Below, piece by piece: positions 1,039 through 28,008 of a DNA stretch of 30,506 nt (positions within the stretch are counted from its first letter, which is position 1; every line of letters begins with the position of its first letter). This stretch comes from a virus, in IMG/VR virus record IMGVR_UViG_3300044606_000094, positions 1 through 30,506 of that record, one strand, 5' to 3'. The notes beneath the pieces were generated by a model, which worked only from the letters and a program-made list of their open reading frames with translations, was not told where the DNA came from and searched no databases. The translations under genes and the position numbers were made by a program.

Positions 1039-3483
1039 TTATACCTCCACCAAATCTAAAGTAGTCATATAGTCATCAGGGGATAATGTAATACCCTCTA
1101 TTCTAAAATCTTTATCCCACATATTATATCTATTTTCTAAATCTTCATCATCATAATATTCAAGGTCAGGCTGACCATAAACTACATCAGTATCGCCCCA
1201 TTTCCATCTTCTTAAAACCAGTGGCTCATCAAAAAATGTTTTTACTTTATCACCCAATTCAAGATGAGGCAAAAACATTGATTCAACTTTACATCTTATT
1301 TTAGGTTCTTTCGTGTAATTCAAAATCGTAGGAGCAACAGCATAAGCCAGATTGACATTATCAGCAGGCAATAATGAGCTTGATGAAATTGAATATTGCC
1401 TATCTCCATATTTGTCAATTGAGTTAGGATGATCGTCCGATGATGCATCAGATACTTTTCTATATATTCCAAATTCAGCTACAACACGATTATATACTCT
1501 ATCTATTCCTAAATCTATACTTTTAACATCAACAATATTATTATCACTTCTCAATTCAATAACAGCAGGGACATTTGTAAAACGAGGTCTATAAATAAAA
1601 GTTTCATCAGCTTTAAAACCAAATTCATAAGCAGGCATCTCGGCTAATTTTTCTAATGCTTGTCTTGATGTCATACCAGTTAAATTAACTAAATCTATAA
1701 GAGTTGTAGAGGTGTAATATGTCAATTTAATTTCGTCAAACACAGGAGTTAAAGGATTTGACAATGATTCTAATGTAGCAGTTACTCTAAACTTCAAATA
1801 TCGTTTAACTGCTGAATTAATTAAGCCAGTTGCTCCAATAGCAACCCAACCAGCAGGATCATTGCCTGTAGAAAAATCTGAGCTATCAGAGCTATAAGTT
1901 TCAAATATTACATTAGCTCCATTTGCTGTATATATCGCATTAAAATCCCCATAGGCAGTTACATCAGAGCCACAATCTTTAACAGGGCTTTCCAAGACGC
2001 CTCTACCTACAGTAGTGCCATTTTCCCAGAAGTAAAAATCATCAAAATAAAATATACGAGTCTGATCTGACCAATAAGCAACATAAGGTATGAGATAAAA
2101 ACCATTAGTAGTATTATGTGTTGTATCAGTTGCAGTCCCTTTTAAAACTTCATTGATGTATAATTTAAAAACACCATTTTCATCCCTTGAAATTCTATAT
2201 ACAAGTTCTATAGAATGATAATATAAATAACTTGTATCAATTAATAAAGTATCTACTCCTGCTGTTCTTTTAAAAAGACGAACCACCACACCCATTGGAC
2301 TTGGATATATAATTATATAATATCCATCATTAGGTTCTTCATTAATACCTGTTTCATTCAATCCTATTATCCATATAGTTAAAGGCATAGCATTATTACT
2401 CCAAGCTTTAAAAATCCAATTACCAGTTGTTTTTTGTAAAGGTAAAAAAAGATTTGGATTATTATCTAAACCCAATGAATTAACTTTCAATATATTTTCA
2501 TTTACTTCCCAACCATCATATTTAACTGTCCATTCAGGATTTTCATCATAATTACCATCTCCAAAATCATCAATCAAACCAATCTTAAAACTACCAGGCG
2601 TTGTAATTGTGTCTATATTAGTTTTAGTGCAAGTATCCCAATCATCTTTGCTATTAAAATCCCAAGTATTTTCAATTGAACTGCTAAATATAGCTGGAGA
2701 TATATCATAATTAGTTATTCCATTCAATATCATTATTTGTTCTACAAGCCACTCTAAAGTCTTATCCTGATACCAATATCTGTAAGAGCAATATAATTTT
2801 TCACCTGCTGTTAATTCGCTTACAAGAGTAATTTTAAGAGGCAGACTTTTTTGATTCAAATCAGATATAGTATAATCTATCTGAGGCTTAATTTCAGTAG
2901 CAGTTTCTAATGTTGTCCCTCTTTTAATATTGATTATTATCCCTACTCCATTATTATCTGTTGTAAATTCTGCTCCTGAATCTTGACCTACCAATTCATC
3001 ATTTACAAGTGTTGATATAGTTTCAGCATTCTTGTTGCCAAATTTTGATATTCCACTTTGAATAACAATATTGCAAGTCTTATTAACTAAATCATAATTC
3101 AAGTCATCAGAGATATAACCAGTAAAACTTTTTAATAATTCAAAACTACCATCAGCAAGTTGTGCACCAAATTTGATAACAATCTTTGAATCAACAACCT
3201 GATAATTACCAGAGAAAAACCCTTTTTCATTTCCCTGCTTCCATTGATTTCTATCATTACGAAAAACAATAGAAGTATTATCAAGTGTCCAAACATTAAA
3301 ACCTTCAGCATCCATCTTCCATCTTATTTCAGACATTTCTTTTACTTCACTTGTTATATCAATAGCTGTATCATAAACGAACGATCCATTTATCCATAAT
3401 TTACGATATAATTCAACAACTTTTTTATAGACAGGATTTTTTCTTTCAAGTGATTTTTTTAATTCGTTAGAAATATCTTGCAT
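1039..3483 (-). CDS. Large distal tail protein (Tal-like tail-tip protein)
   Basis: 814-aa ORF immediately after the Dit-like gene and tape measure, which is the usual siphovirus order; no catalytic motif recognised. Confidence 0.45.
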   Translation of the reverse strand: MQDISNELKKSLERKNPVYKKVVELYRKLWINGSFVYDTAIDITSEVKEMSEIRWKMDAEGFNVWTLDNTSIVFRNDRNQWKQGNEKGFFSGNYQVVDSKIVIKFGAQLADGSFELLKSFTGYISDDLNYDLVNKTCNIVIQSGISKFGNKNAETISTLVNDELVGQDSGAEFTTDNNGVGIIINIKRGTTLETATEIKPQIDYTISDLNQKSLPLKITLVSELTAGEKLYCSYRYWYQDKTLEWLVEQIMILNGITNYDISPAIFSSSIENTWDFNSKDDWDTCTKTNIDTITTPGSFKIGLIDDFGDGNYDENPEWTVKYDGWEVNENILKVNSLGLDNNPNLFLPLQKTTGNWIFKAWSNNAMPLTIWIIGLNETGINEEPNDGYYIIIYPSPMGVVVRLFKRTAGVDTLLIDTSYLYYHSIELVYRISRDENGVFKLYINEVLKGTATDTTHNTTNGFYLIPYVAYWSDQTRIFYFDDFYFWENGTTVGRGVLESPVKDCGSDVTAYGDFNAIYTANGANVIFETYSSDSSDFSTGNDPAGWVAIGATGLINSAVKRYLKFRVTATLESLSNPLTPVFDEIKLTYYTSTTLIDLVNLTGMTSRQALEKLAEMPAYEFGFKADETFIYRPRFTNVPAVIELRSDNNIVDVKSIDLGIDRVYNRVVAEFGIYRKVSDASSDDHPNSIDKYGDRQYSISSSSLLPADNVNLAYAVAPTILNYTKEPKIRCKVESMFLPHLELGDKVKTFFDEPLVLRRWKWGDTDVVYGQPDLEYYDDEDLENRYNMWDKDFRIEGITLSPDDYMTTLDLVEV

Positions 3484-6372: not shown

Positions 6373-6822
6373 CTATTTTTGAGACGACGGCAAAGAGAGC
6401 ATTCCTTTTATTTTCTCGGCTATCCCCTTTAGATTCTTTGTCGTCTGCTGAAAATTTGCGAATATTTTTTCAAAGTCATTTAATTCAGTAACAACTTTTA
6501 TAACTTCGCTAAAATCCTCCATTGAAATATTTGAAAAATCATCATCTGATTTTAATAATATTTTCAATAAGCCATCAGCATTTTCTGTTGCTATTCCTTC
6601 AAGCAAAGCAGGCAAATCATTTTTATCAATACTGTTATTAATTATATTTTGTCTTACAGATTCGTGTAAATTACCAATCAATCTTAAAAGTTTAATATTC
6701 TGTGCCAATGTCATTTTTGTTATCGTATATTTTTTATTATTGACTGTTATAATTTTTTCAACAGGAAGCAAAGTTTCTATTTCACTCATAAATATCTCCT
6801 TTTGTATTTTTAAAAAAAACAC
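6373..6822 (-). CDS. Tail assembly chaperone (G-like); true start probably ATG at 6789 (MSEIETLL) after RBS GGAGAT
   Basis: Position between major tail and tape measure genes; internal RBS plus ATG at 6789. Confidence 0.5.
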   Translation of the reverse strand: MFFLKIQKEIFMSEIETLLPVEKIITVNNKKYTITKMTLAQNIKLLRLIGNLHESVRQNIINNSIDKNDLPALLEGIATENADGLLKILLKSDDDFSNISMEDFSEVIKVVTELNDFEKIFANFQQTTKNLKGIAEKIKGMLSLPSSQK

Positions 6823-6866
6823 AATGAGGCAAAGTTTTACCTATGCCCCATTGTGTATAAGGATTA
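6821..6866 (-). terminator. Rho-independent terminator after the major tail protein gene
   Basis: 13-bp stem (ACACAATGAGGCA / TGCCCCATTGTGT, one mismatch) followed on the minus-strand transcript by a run of 8 U (plus-strand A8 at 6821-6828). Confidence 0.7.
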
Positions 6867-9163: not shown

Positions 9164-9246
9164 TATGTCTCCTATTATTCCGATCCTCGCCCTAATAAGT
9201 AAATATTAAAGCGAGGATGAGGGAATTGAATATGAATATTATTTAT

Positions 9247-11999: not shown

Positions 12000-12028
12000 A
12001 TTATATAAAATTATTTAATTGTTGTCAA
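12000..12028 (-). promoter_or_regulatory. Sigma70-type promoter P1 (TTGACA, 17 bp, TATAAA) upstream of the prohead protease gene
   Basis: Minus-strand -35 TTGACA at 12023-12028 and -10 TATAAA at 12000-12005; short leader with no SD before ATG 11979. Confidence 0.55.
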
Positions 12029-19099: not shown

Positions 19100-19585
19100 T
19101 TACTTATTTATCCTTCTATCTTTACCTTCAATTTTTACAAGCTTACATATTCCTGCTATCCTGCTTGCTATTCTATCATCGTAAACCTTTGCCAATTCTG
19201 ATATAGATAAATTTGAGTTAATAATCAGTGCCTCTGGATTATATAGTGTTCTTTTATCAAGCACTTCATAAACGACAGAATATGAAAACTCGGTCAATTT
19301 CTCAACGCCTATATCATCAATAATCAAATGTCTTTGATTGACAATTTTATTTATATATTCATATTCATCAAGAGCTGTTTTACAAGCCCTGACATCTCTG
19401 ACTATGTCAGATACTTTTTTATATAAGAAATTTCCGAAATGCTTGCCGATGGCAATAGATGTGTATGTTTTACCTACGCCTATGCCACCATAGATATACA
19501 AACCAAATTTCGGATAACCAGAACATTGTGCAATTATTTTTTTAGGTATGTTTTTATAATCAGCATTATTTATCAAATTTAGCAT
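19100..19585 (-). CDS. DnaC/IstB-like AAA+ ATPase (replicative helicase loader)
   Basis: Walker A GGIGVGKT and Walker B LIIDDIG; directly downstream of the initiator gene. Confidence 0.7.
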   Translation of the reverse strand: MLNLINNADYKNIPKKIIAQCSGYPKFGLYIYGGIGVGKTYTSIAIGKHFGNFLYKKVSDIVRDVRACKTALDEYEYINKIVNQRHLIIDDIGVEKLTEFSYSVVYEVLDKRTLYNPEALIINSNLSISELAKVYDDRIASRIAGICKLVKIEGKDRRINK

Positions 19586-20546
19586 ATTTCTCCTCTATTT
19601 CTTTATCTGTCATTTTTATCATATTAGGCAATTTCTTTTTGCCATTGCCAAGATTTATATATCGCCCCTCTAAAACTTTTGGCATATTGGTAGGCCTGAT
19701 AAGCCATTCAAAATCAGCCCGCCACCCGTGATCGTTCTCACCAAGAAGAAAAGGCATATTTTTAACATCATTAAAATATTTCTCCCACCATTCAAGATTA
19801 TTCCTTTCCTCCTTGTTTTCGTTTATCCTTGCCTTAAGACAACTTTTTCGTTGCTTATTAAATATTTTACATTCGGATAGATAACTACCTAAAATATTAT
19901 TATAACTATTTTTAATGTCTTCCAATAACTTATCTATATCATTTAAATTTTGTGATTGTTGTTTTATTGGTTCTGTTGGTTCAGGTTGAGGTTGAGTTTC
20001 AATTTCATTTTTTATCTCTCCCTCTTTGGGGGGTAGGGGGGTATAATCTTTTATATTATTATCATTTATCTTATTATCCTTTATTAGATGGGTCATATTT
20101 GATACTTCTGAATGGTCATTTTTGATACTTCTGAAGGAACATTTTTGATACTTCTGAAGGTTCATATTTGTTAGTTCTGAATTATATTTTTGATAGTTTG
20201 TTTTTTCTGTTAAAATTATAAATCTTATTTTACCACCGCCATTTTTTATTATTGTTTTAGTTTCTATGAAACCATTTTCTTTTAATTCTTTCAGGGCTCT
20301 TTTAATTCTAATTTCATTGACATTGAACATCTTGCATAAATGTTCTGTGCTAAAATAGAATTTATCTGATTTATAACTTATAACAAAAGCCAATATTTTA
20401 AGTGCAGTTCCTGATAGGTCTTCCTGATATAGCCAATCAGGTATAACAAGAAATCTTAACTTAAATAAAGTTTCTTGGCTTTCTTTCAATAATTCTAACT
20501 CTTGCTTATTTATCTTTACCTCATTATTTATATTTTCGTTTTCCAT
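19566..20546 (-). CDS. Replication initiator / replisome organiser (N-terminal winged HTH, C-terminal conserved phage domain)
   Basis: N-terminal HTH-like LSGTALKILAFVISYKS...IRIKRALKELKENGFIE; C-terminal GWRADFEWLIRP...KVLEGRY; iterons embedded in the linker; partner loader gene follows. Confidence 0.6.
   Translation of the reverse strand: MENENINNEVKINKQELELLKESQETLFKLRFLVIPDWLYQEDLSGTALKILAFVISYKSDKFYFSTEHLCKMFNVNEIRIKRALKELKENGFIETKTIIKNGGGKIRFIILTEKTNYQKYNSELTNMNLQKYQKCSFRSIKNDHSEVSNMTHLIKDNKINDNNIKDYTPLPPKEGEIKNEIETQPQPEPTEPIKQQSQNLNDIDKLLEDIKNSYNNILGSYLSECKIFNKQRKSCLKARINENKEERNNLEWWEKYFNDVKNMPFLLGENDHGWRADFEWLIRPTNMPKVLEGRYINLGNGKKKLPNMIKMTDKEIEEKYAKFDK
20093..20200. repeat. Iteron array: about 4.5 tandem copies of a 23-bp unit (CATWTTTGATACTTCTGAA-like), putative replication origin
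   Basis: Tandem copies start at 20093, 20116, 20139, 20162 and 20185, flanked by an AT-rich stretch (20032-20092) and a G-tract GGGGGGTAGGGGGG (20018-20031); the 23-bp period is not a multiple of 3. Confidence 0.6.
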
Positions 20547-20558
20547 TTAGTCCTCCTA

Positions 20559-20798
20559 TTACTTAACTATATCATATGTTTTTTTAAATGTTTTTTCTTT
20601 ACAGATATATTTTTCACCATCAACACCAAACATTAAATAGTCACCTTTTTTACCACGCCTAACACCTTTCTTTGTTTTTACAATAAATCCTTCAGGAAAA
20701 TTAAGTTGTAAGGCATGTATTATCACAGGTTTTTTTCTGCATTTAACAATCCCTTCAAAATTTTCAAGTGTAATCTTATTTGCATTGAATGGTTTCAT
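20559..20798 (-). CDS. Hypothetical protein
   Basis: 79-aa ORF with RBS AGGAGG. Confidence 0.4.
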   Translation of the reverse strand: MKPFNANKITLENFEGIVKCRKKPVIIHALQLNFPEGFIVKTKKGVRRGKKGDYLMFGVDGEKYICKEKTFKKTYDIVK

Positions 20799-20815
20799 AT
20801 TTCCTCCTATTTATT

Positions 20816-21112
20816 TTATATTTCTATCTCAACTTTTCTTTCTTTATTCCACGCAGCATCCATATAAAGACACTTTATTTGATTAATTAGCTTATCTATA
20901 GCATCTTCATTATCCACAAAAAACTTTCCAGATGATGACATACCCTCCATTACTTTCAAATTATACACCAACTGATCAGACCTATTCTCATAACTACTTT
21001 TTATAAATATCTTAGATGTATAAGTTGTATCATTTTCAAGTACCTCAATTATTACCATTCTTTTTCCATTTTCATCGACTTTTTGTTTTACATCCAATAT
21101 TACTTTCATAAA
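20816..21112 (-). CDS. Hypothetical protein (start revised to ATG at 21112, MKVILDV...)
   Basis: RBS AGGAGG 5 nt before this ATG; the longer listed ORF (to 21223) would run through a promoter and a 5'UTR hairpin. Confidence 0.45.
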   Translation of the reverse strand, partial: FMKVILDVKQKVDENGKRMVIIEVLENDTTYTSKIFIKSSYENRSDQLVYNLKVMEGMSSSGKFFVDNEDAIDKLINQIKCLYMDAAWNKERKVEIEI

Positions 21113-21218
21113 TCCTCCTATAAACAAATTGGTGGAGGGAGGATGTAGATGCGAACGAGGACTACATCCCCCCTTAAATTCATTTATCTGTTTTATATGA
21201 TTGTGTTCGCATACTGAA

Positions 21219-21248
21219 ATCATACTAAATTATTTTTATAGTTGTCAA
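21219..21248 (-). promoter_or_regulatory. Sigma70-type promoter P4 (TTGACA, 18 bp, TATGAT)
   Basis: -35 at 21243-21248, -10 at 21219-21224; preceded by a hairpin (21257-21302) and followed by a GC-rich 5'UTR hairpin (21135-21172). Confidence 0.5.
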
Positions 21249-21256
21249 GTTGTAAG

Positions 21257-21302
21257 AGGCAGATGCTGTATGTGTTGCCTTCGGTAGGAAACATCTGCCC
21301 CT
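21257..21302 (-). terminator. Hairpin downstream of gene 21307-21582 (terminator-like, weak U tail)
   Basis: GGCAGATG / CATCTGCC 8-10 bp stem read from sequence, directly before promoter P4. Confidence 0.4.
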
Positions 21303-21306
21303 AAAA

Positions 21307-21582
21307 TTATTCTATATAACTTATTTTTTTATCACCGCCACATAGAGGACATATCCTATCTATATCGTCCTCTACTATTTCGCCATTCTCATCAAGAAAT
21401 GGCTTCATTAAATTATCATCAGGAACATATTCAATATCATAATTATTAATTTCACTTAATTTTTTATACAATTCATTTCCTGTCACATTTCCATATCCAT
21501 CACAAAGAGGACACTCTTCATTTACTTCATAGAATTGTGTCAAGCGATTACCTCTATCCCAAGTATCTGATTTTGTTTTCAT
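21307..21582 (-). CDS. Zinc-ribbon small protein (two CxxC pairs)
   Basis: CPLCDG ... CPLCGG motifs. Confidence 0.45.
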   Translation of the reverse strand: MKTKSDTWDRGNRLTQFYEVNEECPLCDGYGNVTGNELYKKLSEINNYDIEYVPDDNLMKPFLDENGEIVEDDIDRICPLCGGDKKISYIE

Positions 21583-21854
21583 TTGTCCTCCTCTTTTTTA
21601 TATGGAATATTATAAATTTTACAAAGTTTATGTAATTGTGTTTTTGTTAACTGAATATATTTCACATAATCAAAATCAAAATAATTAAAAAACCCAACTT
21701 TAGCATTTCCATTATCATTTAGTATAATGTCAAAATAACTATATTTTAGACCATAATATAGTTCTATAATATAATGTATTTCTTTTTTTAATTGTCCATC
21801 ATTTTTATTTGCTTTTAATTGCTCTATAATTTTATTTAAAGGAATTTCTGTCAT
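21579..21854 (-). CDS. Hypothetical protein
   Basis: 91-aa ORF with RBS AGAGGAGG. Confidence 0.4.
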   Translation of the reverse strand: MTEIPLNKIIEQLKANKNDGQLKKEIHYIIELYYGLKYSYFDIILNDNGNAKVGFFNYFDFDYVKYIQLTKTQLHKLCKIYNIPYKKEEDK

Positions 21855-21991
21855 TACTCCTCCTCTTTATATTTTCTCTTTATCTCTTTCGTTGTTGCAT
21901 ATCTTTTTTTATTATACTTATATAATCTTTTTTTTATTTTTTTATTGATTATTCTGTCAATATTCATTGCATTTATCTTCATAATTACTCC

Positions 21992-22174
21992 TCATTTAGG
22001 CAACCAGAATTTCCAGAATGGCCTGCTATAATGCTTGCAAGGTATCATAGCTATATTCATTGTCTCTTTCCTTGCTATATACATCTCAAGACACATTTTA
22101 AATGAAGAACAATCTTCGCATTGCCTTTGTTTTAATTTCTTTTCTTTACCATTTCCTATTTTTATTTTAAACAT
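21992..22174 (-). CDS. Cys-rich small protein
   Basis: 60-aa with CEDC ... C ... C. Confidence 0.35.
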   Translation of the reverse strand: MFKIKIGNGKEKKLKQRQCEDCSSFKMCLEMYIARKETMNIAMIPCKHYSRPFWKFWLPK

Positions 22175-23490: not shown

Positions 23491-23526
23491 TAAAAGGGCA
23501 GACCCATTTAAGAGCCTGCCCCTTTT
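23491..23526 (-). terminator. Hairpin between RecT and the exonuclease gene (terminator- or attenuator-like)
   Basis: GC-rich stem GGGCAGAC / GCCTGCCC with flanking T and A runs on both strands. Confidence 0.4.
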
Positions 23527-23537
23527 AGTCTGTTATC

Positions 23538-24434
23538 TTATTCAGCAGGCTCAATATTAACCACATAATGATATTCGTTATCTTTATATAGTTCTGTTCT
23601 ATATGTTATCTTGCAAGGATAACCAACCGCTGATTCGCAATTACTGACTAATCCCTCATCCTTTACATTGACGAGGAAGAAGTCATCATTAATTTTAAGA
23701 GCCCTTGTTTTTTTACCTTGTTTTAAAGATAAAAACTCATCAGGCACTCCGATGATTTCCTTTAATTCATTTTCTTGTTCTGGTCTTTTTATTTCTTGTT
23801 TTTCTTTTTTATCTTCCTGCTTGTTTTCTTTTTCTTCATTTGTTTGAGGTGCTTTAATATCATCAGCATTGACATTGATTATTTTGCTTTTATCAATATC
23901 AACCATATTGTCTGGAAGTTCGTCAGCAGTGTAAGGCATACCTGAAAACTCGTCAGGAAAGGCCATCCTGAAACCCTGAGCGATGGCTACTTTTTTTAAC
24001 ATCGTTTTAGGCTTATTCATCCACATTGAATTTCCCTGATTATATTCAGAGAACTCTACCTCGTGGACAAGAGGCTTATCCCAATCCTTTCTATAGATAG
24101 TAACCACTGCAGTTAAGCCTTTATTTTTTATATCTCCATTTGTGGTTACTTCCCAACCAGCGAGCTTACCTGTCCTTTCAGCTCTTTTGAGATACACCTC
24201 ATATCCTGTTATGATTGACAACTTCCTTCCGTTCTTTGTTTCATAAGGTATACAATAGATTTCCCTTTTGAAAGGGTTTAATTGGAAGGCAACCGCAACC
24301 TCAACGAATTGCGTTATCTCATTGTCTTTAAGAGTATTAGATAAACCAAAACTCTTAAGATAAGAGATAACTTTTTCAGAAGTTATCATCTCAGTTTGTT
24401 TTTTTTCTGTCAATTCCCTATTTTCATTATTCAT
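23538..24434 (-). CDS. recT: RecT-like single-strand annealing protein
   Basis: QFVEVAVAFQLNPFKREIYCIPY...GYEVYLKRAERTG and MLKKVAIAQGFRMAFPDEF resemble the RecT family; paired with a nuclease gene. Confidence 0.6.
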   Translation of the reverse strand: MNNENRELTEKKQTEMITSEKVISYLKSFGLSNTLKDNEITQFVEVAVAFQLNPFKREIYCIPYETKNGRKLSIITGYEVYLKRAERTGKLAGWEVTTNGDIKNKGLTAVVTIYRKDWDKPLVHEVEFSEYNQGNSMWMNKPKTMLKKVAIAQGFRMAFPDEFSGMPYTADELPDNMVDIDKSKIINVNADDIKAPQTNEEKENKQEDKKEKQEIKRPEQENELKEIIGVPDEFLSLKQGKKTRALKINDDFFLVNVKDEGLVSNCESAVGYPCKITYRTELYKDNEYHYVVNIEPAE

Positions 24435-25686: not shown

Positions 25687-26369
25687 ATATCCTCCTTTTT
25701 ATCCTCATCATCATCATATGAAAACTTTTTCATCTCCCATTCCTTATCCAGATAGACAATATCTATCTTTAGATTTTCGTCTATCTTTTGCAAAAATAAA
25801 TCATTGCCTGGCCTATCCACATATTCCAAAAGATGGAGGGCTGAATTACCCCTTTTGTATATTTTTTTGCTAAACAGGATTGGATAAATATCCATTGCAG
25901 GCAATTCAATATCTTCATTTAGCACGCCTGCCATAGAGATGTGGAGTTGGCCACCTCTACAAATTTGCATCGTTTTGCTATCCTTTAAATACTCAACCCA
26001 ATAATCCTTACATCCCGAACTACCAGTTTTAACCCTTACTCTGTAAGGGCTAACTCTTTTAAGGTGCATTTCCTTAAAAGAGATCTTTTCAGTATCTTCT
26101 ATTTTTCTTAAGAGAGTATAAAGCATACTCTCTTCAAGAAATTTACCTGCTATCCTCTGGATGGTTAACCTCCCAAAGTAATCTATATTAAAATAATAAC
26201 GCCCCCAATTTTTAAGGGCGTCATTATATTTTACAATGATATGCTTTACATATTTATCATTGTAATTAGAAGTTTCAACATTTTCATTTGTTTCATTTGT
26301 TTCAGAGGTTTCTATTACCTCTGTGTTTTCTGTATTTTCAGTGTTTTGTTTTTGATTTCTTACTATCAT
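25677..26369 (-). CDS. Hypothetical protein with acidic N-terminal repeat (TENTENTEVIETSETNETNENVETS)
   Basis: 230-aa ORF; short tandem DNA repeats at about 26275-26340 encode the acidic repeat; overlaps the RadC-like gene start. Confidence 0.45.
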   Translation of the reverse strand: MIVRNQKQNTENTENTEVIETSETNETNENVETSNYNDKYVKHIIVKYNDALKNWGRYYFNIDYFGRLTIQRIAGKFLEESMLYTLLRKIEDTEKISFKEMHLKRVSPYRVRVKTGSSGCKDYWVEYLKDSKTMQICRGGQLHISMAGVLNEDIELPAMDIYPILFSKKIYKRGNSALHLLEYVDRPGNDLFLQKIDENLKIDIVYLDKEWEMKKFSYDDDEDKKEDICL

Positions 26370-27979: not shown

Positions 27980-28008
27980 ATTATAGCAGATTACTATTTA
28001 TTTTCAAT
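27980..28008 (-). promoter_or_regulatory. Sigma70-type promoter P7 (TTGAAA, 16 bp, TATAAT)
   Basis: -35 at 28002-28007, -10 at 27980-27985; near-duplicate of the P6 block. Confidence 0.5.

Follow-up and report, generated by a model that had tools for sequence, protein, structure and literature searches.

We analyzed the interval at positions 21110-21306 of a viral contig (IMG/VR record IMGVR_UViG_3300044606_000094; hereafter the window, which is the complete JGI metagenome contig of 30,506 bp and to whose positions all coordinates refer), in which a promoter, P4, stands between two hairpins, H1 and H2. The phage DNA is A+T-rich (27-39% G+C), essentially all genes lie on the minus strand, and the interval separates a recombination block from a replication block: upstream are RecT (23538-24434), a PD-(D/E)XK exonuclease and small open reading frames (ORFs), the last of which is a 91-aa zinc-ribbon gene; downstream follow a 97-aa ORFan, a 79-aa PGDYG protein, an O-like/DnaD-like initiator and a DnaC-like loader. 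Along the minus strand the following features can be distinguished:

21307-21582, minus strand: 91-aa zinc-ribbon gene (CxxC...CxxC), an ORF with a ribosome-binding site (RBS)
21255-21302, minus strand: hairpin H1, with 5' arm AGGGGCAGAUGUU at 21302-21290 and 3' arm AGCAUCUGCCUCU at 21267-21255
21219-21248, minus strand: promoter P4, with −35 TTGACA at 21248-21243, an 18-nt spacer and −10 TATGAT at 21224-21219
21212-21205, minus strand: 5' strand of a pseudoknot, AUGCGAAC, which starts 7 nt past the −10 box, at the predicted +1 (A21212)
21175-21204, minus strand: A-rich linker of 30-31 nt, ACAAUCAUAUAAAACAGAUAAAUGAAUUUA, which shares ACAGAUAAA with the D-type leader introduced below
21136-21174, minus strand: hairpin H2, with 5' arm GGGGGGAUGUAG at 21173-21162 and 3' arm CUACAUCCUCCC at 21148-21137
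21156-21149, minus strand: 3' strand of the pseudoknot, GUUCGCAU, the last 8 bases of the H2 loop, adjoining the 3' arm
21120-21130, minus strand: AU-rich 3' flank, AAUUUGUUUAU, which ends 1 nt before the Shine-Dalgarno (SD) sequence
20816-21109, minus strand: 97-aa ORFan gene, with ATG at 21109-21107 and SD AGGAGG at 21119-21114

Two stable hairpins flanking P4 had been proposed from the window sequence (the original prediction), and both stand out in the contig. H2, which lies within the 5' untranslated region (5'UTR) of this strong consensus promoter as proposed, has a G+C-rich stem of 12 bp (13 with A21174-U21136) including one G·U pair, and a 13-nt loop, UCCUC-GUUCGCAU; its minimum free energy (MFE) is −21.8 kcal/mol, compared with −9.2 ± 2.1 for shuffled sequences (z −5.9; 0 of 200 shuffles as good), and it ties for fourth rank when MFEs are scanned along the entire minus strand in 50-nt windows (mean −5.4, s.d. 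3.5). H1, which indeed follows gene 21307-21582 and begins 5 nt past its stop codon, has a 13-bp stem including two G·U pairs and a 21-nt loop with a small inner CCU/AGG helix (MFE −19.2 kcal/mol vs. −9.3 ± 2.4 for shuffles; z −4.1; 0 of 200 as good; about twelfth in the scan). Both hairpins fold less well on the antisense strand (−20.4 kcal/mol for H2; −16.2 kcal/mol, z −2.0, for H1), as is to be expected where G·U pairs turn into A·C mismatches. The AU-rich flank AAUUUGUUUAU can also pair with AUAAAUGAAUU (21187-21177), which extends the base of H2 (fold of −26.4 kcal/mol, z −5.0), in sequences of low information content. Several details of the original prediction needed adjustment: the leader stem is G+C-rich and 12 bp long as stated, but the 3' arm quoted for it, CTACATCCCCCC, is in fact its 5' arm read on the plus strand; the start codon (ATG) of the downstream gene is at 21109 rather than at 21112; the leader measures about 103 nt from the predicted +1, not roughly 95 nt; and the stem precedes the SD by 17 nt, close to the 20 nt given. 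What had been missed altogether was the pairing of the transcript 5' end with the H2 loop, and the location of the interval at a mosaic recombination junction.

The pairing is seen directly in the window leader, in which the loop segment GUUCGCAU is perfectly complementary to the 8 nt that open the predicted transcript, AUGCGAAC. For comparison we used 14 related loci (L001-L010 and L045-L048), taken from contigs encoding homologues of the zinc-ribbon protein (two homologue clusters) or of the initiator (a few more); all are metagenome assemblies, one of them from a sample labelled activated sludge. Their leaders are of three types: W, the window type; I, found before the initiator; and D, found before a DUF7831 gene. 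The I-type leader is ~70% identical to the W leader by alignment, and its H2 homologue reads GGAGGGAUAUAG-UCUUCGUUUGCCAU-CUAUAUCCCUCC; its loop bases UUCGUUUGCCAU complement AUGGCAAACGAA, which likewise starts 7 nt past the −10 box. Conservation and covariation in relatives had been named as a check on the hairpin, and H2 is indeed conserved with compensatory changes: relative to the W stem, the I-type stem carries two G-C to A-U double changes and a G·U to G-C change, and in the pseudoknot a G to A change goes with C to U on the partner strand, just as a G insertion goes with a C insertion. The D-type leader, at 25-30% identity to W and I, is at about the random level and has the same design: TATAAT, 6 nt, AUGGAUGUAU, a 36-nt A-rich linker, and a 14-bp stem, GACUGGGCUAUGUU / AACAUAGUCCAGUC (one G·U pair), closing an 18-nt loop whose last 10 bases, AUACAUCCAU, complement the 5' end.

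The complement between loop and 5' end is therefore 8 nt long in W, 12 nt in I and 10 nt in D (duplex energies −11.4, −17.6 and −12.3 kcal/mol, respectively), and in all three types it is anchored twice, with one strand starting at the predicted +1 and the other closing the loop on its 3' side. When each leader was shuffled 200,000 times, 105 (W), 0 (I) and 21 (D) of the shuffles contained, at any position, a complement as long as the one observed or longer; a complement anchored at both ends occurred in 0 of 200,000 for each type. Counting of pairs between W and I found 45 of 45 cells paired, with 5 pairs changed on both sides, whereas controls slid out of register had 40-54% of cells paired and no double changes. 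When D is added, all stem and pseudoknot cells still pair, and pseudoknot pairs 4-10 and 11 of the 14 stem pairs change on both sides; this three-way table is a manual, structure-anchored alignment, as MAFFT was unable to set the three leader types in structural register, and the pair-counting tool was applied to W vs. I only. Paired positions are 72% identical between W and I and unpaired positions 50%; among the leader types, unpaired positions are 26-50% identical. Because the complementarity in W and D ends at the loop boundary, stem and pseudoknot can form together in these two types, and because 0 nt separate the pseudoknot strand from the 3' arm, the pseudoknot helix can stack on the stem. 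A longer helix is accompanied by more spare bases on the 5' side of the loop: W has 5 nt beside a helix of 8 bp, and D has 8 nt beside one of 10 bp.

We searched for the same architecture, defined as a stem of at least 9 bp with an anchored loop complement of at least 7 nt. Across 48 loci and the window, the scan returned only these leaders and a handful of unrelated matches; in 917 kb of other IMG/VR contigs there were 0 matches accompanied by a promoter, and 24 promoter-less matches vs. 29 in the reversed-sequence control. The architecture was absent from loci L011-L044 and L049-L053 and from 80 IMG/VR loci collected via a 360-aa protein. Taken together, the structure, a hairpin whose loop forms a helix with the 5' end in the sense-strand RNA, is well supported. 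A separate hairpin was seen on the minus strand of L013 (about 2987-3040; UUUGCAAAC / GUUUGCAAA), an unrelated phage contig with a distant initiator; its loop complements GAAUAGCAA located 15 nt upstream, it adjoins tandem 'tctgtatctgaa' repeats, and there is no promoter in the right position. It may be an origin-region structure.

The promoter and the leader travel together, as a unit found amid the replication genes in a small set of uncultured phages. P4 is the best promoter match of the region (11 of 12 consensus positions); its extended motif, CTTGACAACTATAAAA, is common to the D-type promoter of relatives, and its −35 element and the start of its spacer recur in L003, L045, L005-L008 and L002. 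The promoters of the three types are TTGACA-18-TATGAT (W), TTGACA-17-TAAGAT (I) and TTGACA-17-TATAAT (D), each followed by 6 nt and then AUG. What comes after H1 differs among the relatives, with four continuations:

(a) L001, L002, L004, L007, L010 and L048: an SD and a 149/154-aa gene, with no promoter
(b) the window, L003 and L045: P4 and the H2 leader
(c) L005, L006 and L008: a near-identical promoter, TTGACAACTATAAAATAATGTTATATAAT, and a different structured leader before the DUF7831 gene
(d) L009: the promoter cut after TTGACAACTATA, followed by a pentapeptide-repeat gene

In continuation (a), the SD of the next gene lies ~15 nt past H1. In continuation (b), the leaders of L003 and L045 match the window leader up to TAGGAGGA and then run straight into the initiator, so that the 97-aa and 79-aa genes of the window are an insertion at a repeated SD context, ATAGGAGGA. 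This context, followed by 3-5 nt and ATG, recurs at 21104-21121, 20793-20810 and ~20547-20563 (the starts of the 97-aa, 79-aa and initiator genes), and is the exact joint of the difference between the window and L003/L045. The I-type promoter and leader precede the initiator in L001, L002, L004-L007 and L010; there, a second hairpin (−26.3 kcal/mol), followed by UUUUUUAUUU (U6AU3), stands directly before the initiator SD, and by alignment the W leader is without a ~66-nt I-type segment that includes most of this terminator hairpin. The unit of promoter and leader thus precedes five contexts: the initiator (L003 and L045); the 97-aa gene (the window); a terminator and the initiator (L001, L002, L004, L005, L007 and L010); a 117-aa gene (L046 and L047, with the same start of the arrangement in L006 and L009); and the DUF7831 gene. 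H1, the promoter and the SD are thus joints of modular shuffling.

The genes right behind the D-type leader (DUF7831; L005 2509-2520) and the I-type leader (117 aa; L046 101-128, and L047) have no recognizable SD, in contrast to nearly all other genes of these phages, which carry AGGAGG. The missing SD may be replaced by the leader structure, or the starts may be miscalled.

H1 itself is found directly 3' of the zinc-ribbon stop codon in 12 of the 12 related loci that cover the 3' end of that gene. Its stems are invariant across five sequence variants, substitutions and indels being confined to the 5' part of the loop, and it belongs to a block conserved together with the last ~85 nt of the zinc-ribbon gene; this conservation is compatible with a structural constraint and is no proof of one. 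The original prediction had suggested attenuation, and we find little to support it in the window: a terminator scan of 20500-22000 gave no terminator-like site; H1 has no U-tract (the next bases are CUUACAAC) and neither has H2 (where UCCACCAA precedes any U run); the stems are G+C-rich and the loops, of 21 and 13 nt, exceed the size usual in terminators (about 3-8 nt); and a separate terminator is present only in the I-type relatives. H1 is probably not a strong terminator, because in the relatives with continuation (a) the next gene comes without a promoter. Most likely it is an RNA 3'-end or intercistronic stability element, or a weak attenuator, combined with a fixed boundary for module exchange. 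Nor is there anything that marks the interval as an early-middle boundary, as had been suggested; it lies between the recombination and replication modules and similar promoters occur all along the contig, including among structural genes.

We tentatively read the interval as a portable expression cassette of composite make-up, placed at a mosaic junction and consisting of H1, a σ70/σA-type promoter and a structured leader, with the leader acting as a stabilizer that sequesters the 5' end; we lean toward this reading with somewhat less than even confidence. Structure at the very 5' end is known to shield mRNAs from RNase J1 and RNase E. Moreover, RppH of B. subtilis requires at least 2 unpaired 5' nucleotides (PMC3997798), and folded viral RNAs that sequester the 5' end can mechanically halt bacterial RNase J1 in vitro (PMC5760640). 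In the proposed cassette, H1 would sit at the 3' end of the zinc-ribbon gene, followed by the strong promoter and then by the pseudoknot leader; the first 8 nt of the transcript would pair with the 3' part of the H2 apical loop, forming a pseudoknot stacked on the H2 stem and leaving no unpaired 5' nucleotide; neither RppH-type pyrophosphohydrolases nor RNases that depend on the 5' end (RNase J1 or RNase E) would have ready access to the 5' triphosphate; and the replication-operon transcript would be stabilized, whatever the downstream gene. In the window, a possible secondary effect is that folded H2 would keep the AUCCUCC of its 3' arm off the SD GGAGGAU. We favor such a generic 5'-end function over a gene-specific switch because in each of the three versions the predicted first nucleotide is already paired, because promoter and leader move as a unit before unrelated genes, and because hardly any unpaired nucleotide is conserved.

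Several observations weigh against a stabilizer. Only three distinct leader sequences are at hand, from a narrow clade; W and I are homologous, and the comparison with D is an alignment imposed by structure, so that D is an independent instance rather than true covariation. The transcription start site (TSS) is a prediction from the −10 box alone. The 12-nt complement of the I type leaves 2 spare loop bases, also runs into the 5' arm, and cannot fully coexist with the stem, which suggests that in this type the two structures are alternative and not simultaneous. H1, with its invariant stems and its co-conservation with the gene end, has no support from covariation. Furthermore, a simple 5'-terminal hairpin would suffice for protection, which leaves no evident reason for a pseudoknot; nor does a stabilizing role account for the invariant 5'-AUG:CAU pairs; and the relevant set of RNases depends on the host.

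A bolder version of the stabilizing cassette is possible, but we think it rather unlikely as a whole: a portable module of promoter plus RNA cap, in which the pseudoknot would close the triphosphate 5' end and make any gene placed behind it resistant to decay by RppH together with RNase J1 or RNase E, as a bacterial-virus counterpart of the exonuclease-resistant RNAs (xrRNAs) of eukaryotic viruses, spread by recombination at the promoter and the SD. Should the leader indeed protect the 5' end, phages would have in it a novel and highly compact means of stabilizing early transcripts and a bacterial analogue of viral exonuclease-resistant RNAs, and synthetic biology would gain a natural portable 5' stabilizer module. 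Whatever its function, the interval provides a clean example outside the T4-like phages of hairpin/promoter/SD cassettes as recombination joints. Structured 5' leaders and promoter/stem-loop cassettes are already known; our literature searches turned up no account of a leader that holds its own first nucleotides in the apical loop of a distal hairpin, and nothing similar to it.

Stabilizers at the 5' terminus of mRNAs include the E. coli ompA 5'UTR and the B. subtilis aprE and ermC leaders. The present leader is like such stabilizers (PMC3997798) in that the predicted first nucleotides of its transcript are structured, no single-stranded 5' tail would be left, and the downstream gene would be immaterial; known examples, however, are simple hairpins, bound ribosomes or SD-like sites, whereas here the 5' end lies in the loop of a hairpin 30-40 nt away. 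The xrRNAs of flaviviruses and plant viruses (PMC5760640) are likewise viral folds that use a loop-mediated pseudoknot to enclose or sequester the 5' end, but their three-way junction, ring-forming conserved nucleotides and Rfam match are not seen in the leader; they occur in 3'UTRs or internally and yield decay intermediates, whereas the leader starts at the predicted +1 and its resistance is putative. The gene 32 operator of T4 and RB69 (PMC535899) similarly combines, in the leader of a phage replication function, a 5' pseudoknot with an A/U-rich tract carrying UAAA/UUAAA-like motifs before the RBS. That pseudoknot is a compact H-type of ~28 nt with the A/U tract 3' of it, whereas here the A-rich tract is a linker inside the pseudoknot; and the leader here stands before several unrelated genes and has no known cognate binding protein. 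In plasmids of the IncB/IncI-α (repZ) and pT181/pIP501 kinds, the rep leader contains a stem-loop whose loop pairs over a long range. The I-type relatives share with rep leaders of the pT181/pIP501 type a terminator just before the initiator SD, which the window does not have; in rep leaders the loop pairs beside the RBS, but here it pairs with the 5' end, and there is no antisense promoter above background (the opposite strand gives 9/12 matches only, at background frequency). The leader shares a concept with each of these systems and has the defining features of none.

Two further classes of pseudoknot were considered and rejected. HDV-like ribozymes have the same strand order as the leader (P1 5', P2 5', P1 3', P2 3'), but with 0 nt before the 3' arm of the stem and 2-8 nt before the 3' strand of the pseudoknot there is no room for P3, P4 and J4/2, and no Rfam match was obtained. 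A ligand-binding pseudoknot riboswitch (preQ1, SAM-II or fluoride) was set aside because of the low identity of the unpaired positions and because the downstream genes are mutually unrelated. Rfam 15 gave no match to the whole window at gathering thresholds, and a permissive search of 20900-21500 reached 9.8-19.5 bits at best, vs. cut-offs of 43-90.

The H1/promoter part of the cassette has its closest likeness in the promoter-early stem-loop (PeSL) cassettes of T4-like phages (Arbiol et al. 2010, PMC2839356; Comeau et al. 2014, PMC4122927). The layout is the same, with a stop codon, a G-rich/C-rich stem-loop containing G·U, a σ70-like promoter, an SD and the next gene; and both are located at breakpoints of insertion, deletion or replacement between close relatives and are associated with ORFans. 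PeSLs, however, form a family of about 50 repeats, whereas H1 is single-copy per genome and H1 and H2 each occur once in the window; the cassette is hosted there by T4-like phages and here by a contig of ~30-35 kb with lambda-style replication genes; PeSL stem-loops terminate, whereas strong termination at H1 is unlikely; and the description of PeSLs is without a leader pseudoknot downstream of the promoter, which defines the novelty here. Given that H1 is single-copy and the phage is not T4-like, the H1/promoter part is PeSL-like in action and not a member of the PeSL family. The idea that H1 and H2 are copies of a shared repeat (GGGGnnGATGT) was dropped, as 4 matches against 2.5 expected are not above chance.

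The leader could instead be a regulatory switch, a riboregulator or attenuator of the replication operon in which H2 and the pseudoknot alternate with another fold, the freed pyrimidine-rich 3' arm of H2 then masking the SD (W) or pairing with the 5' arm of the terminator (I), under the control of a protein, of a small RNA or ligand, or of a ribosome that initiates at the 5'-terminal AUG. We consider such a switch unlikely, though still plausible. In the window, AUCCUCC (21144-21138) in the 3' arm of H2 is an exact complement of GGAGGAU at the SD (21118-21112), and the duplex (−11.6 kcal/mol) appears only when the 5' arm of H2 is blocked; in the I type, a strong terminator-like hairpin stands right before the initiator SD, the 3' arm of H2 can pair with the 5' arm of that terminator (−12.0 kcal/mol), and in the centroid fold the 5' segment can invade the 5' arm of the stem. 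All three leader types, moreover, begin with AUG, and the pseudoknot operator of T4 gene 32 is a precedent. The IncB/IncI repZ pseudoknot is another precedent for a switch-type leader. The logic, however, would be opposite in the two types, as intact H2 frees the SD in W (ON) and permits the terminator in I (OFF), and the D type has neither SD nor terminator after its hairpin. A cassette that serves unrelated genes argues against gene-specific feedback; the near absence of conserved unpaired nucleotides is unlike a ligand aptamer; neither an antisense promoter above background nor an Rfam match was found; and the frames opened by the 5' AUG, of 10 (W), 58/59/43 (I) and 22 (D) codons, are not conserved. 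For the last reason, since frame sequence varies as well as length, a leaderless leader peptide starting at the 5' AUG was rejected as the main explanation. The I-type frames run through the hairpins (L002 4140-4316; L001 11385-11564; L046 13-144, in the order of the codon numbers given), and that of L002 stops 1 nt before the initiator ATG; a real leaderless peptide in the I type is doubtful, because the C-termini differ between variants.

It is also conceivable, if improbable, that the hairpins are ordinary ones: H1 a terminator or 3'-end stabilizer, H2 a 5'UTR hairpin of the generic kind or what a deletion has left of a terminator, and the match between loop and 5' end functionless. The G-rich/C-rich PeSL hairpins beside promoters do terminate even without obvious U-tracts (PMC2839356), the W leader looks like an I leader that has lost ~66 nt including most of the terminator, and the contig has other terminator-like hairpins. 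However, doubly anchored matches of 8, 12 and 10 nt in three versions are essentially never obtained in shuffles, a strong terminator at H1 would silence the promoterless next gene of the relatives with continuation (a), and both H1 and H2 fail the criteria for terminators.

A role at the level of DNA, in which the inverted repeats would be an operator, a cruciform, an origin element or a recombination site recognized by a phage-encoded protein (the initiator or the zinc-ribbon protein, for instance), seems more improbable still. The site is just upstream of the replication genes, one half of the repeat overlaps the transcription start, which is a common operator position, and the interval is a recombination junction in relatives; but the G·U pairs of H1, H2 and the D stem would be A·C mismatches on the opposite strand and folding is better on the sense strand, the loop complement exactly adjoins the 3' arm (a feature of helical stacking in RNA) with 'half sites' 45-55 bp apart, and the cassette also precedes genes unrelated to replication. 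In addition, the likely origin is elsewhere, in an array of lambda-style repeats:

19566-20546, minus strand: replication initiator gene (O-like/DnaD-like; phrog_345, E 1e-28)
20087-20201, no strand assigned: five tandem 23-bp iterons inside the initiator gene (start spacing 23, 23, 23; 67-100% identity between copies)

The iteron consensus is GAATGGTCATTTTTGATACTTCT on the plus strand. The iterons are probably the replication origin, arranged as in lambda, and H2 was rejected as an origin because they lie inside the initiator gene.

The order of zinc-ribbon gene, promoter, structured RNA and, in the I type, terminator resembles that of Q, PR' and tR' in lambda. Processive antitermination, in which the nascent leader RNA directly after the promoter, or the zinc-ribbon protein as a Q-like factor, would modify RNA polymerase (as for HK022 put, EAR or lambda Q with PR'), is nevertheless the most improbable of the explanations, given that many relatives have another gene instead of a promoter after the zinc-ribbon gene, that the window has no terminator downstream of H2, that Rfam gave no match to put or EAR, and that the single annotation match of the zinc-ribbon protein (phrog_127, 'anti-termination protein Q-like', E 7e-4) is weak, near threshold and confined to the CxxC zinc motif. 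The protein, whose homologues fall in clusters P0002 (93% identity) and P0003 (70% identity), had no match in a Pfam search, and its AlphaFold model (pLDDT 44.5) is unusable, too poor for a fold search; it was accordingly rejected as a Q-like antiterminator.

GenBank phages gave no DNA match to the window region or to the L002 region, and the window terminase had remote matches only (~24% identity). Searches of IMG/VR for H2 patterns and for relatives of the 97-aa, 91-aa and DUF7831 proteins came back empty, and GTDB genomes contained neither the H2 pattern nor a DUF7831 relative; the only match of the 97-aa protein was itself, an exact look-up of the 60-aa protein of the window gave no match, and the window has no tRNA or tmRNA genes.

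The promoter consensus recurs ~7 times in the window. Six more strong σ70-type intergenic promoters lie on the minus strand (−35 starts at 28007, 26845, 25006, 16017, 14171 and 12028), some of them among packaging and structural genes; three are perfect 12/12 matches, and the one at 12028 (CTTGACAACAATTAAATAATTTTATATAAT) is like P4 beyond the hexamers. There was no sign of a separate late promoter type in the window.

The most stable hairpins of the contig on the minus strand are at 23491-23540, 26191-26240, 6817-6866 and 9178-9227. At least two of these, the one after RecT and that at 26191-26240, look like classic terminators with A and U flanks, and the hairpin after RecT has a GGGGCAG arm start in common with H1. 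A segment from the loop and 3' arm of H1, AAGGCAACACAUACAG (21267-21282), resembles AAGGCACAUACAG in the D-type linker (L005 about 2443-2456), with 13 identical bases and a 3-nt indel; this likeness, together with the ACAGAUAAA common to the W and D linkers, may reflect shared descent of these elements or recombination between them.

The initiator is itself a mosaic among the window, L001, L002 and L003: the C-terminal domain is conserved, and the N-terminal domain of L001 is unrelated. The L001 initiator is 32% identical overall, yet its leader is of the same I type as that of L002.

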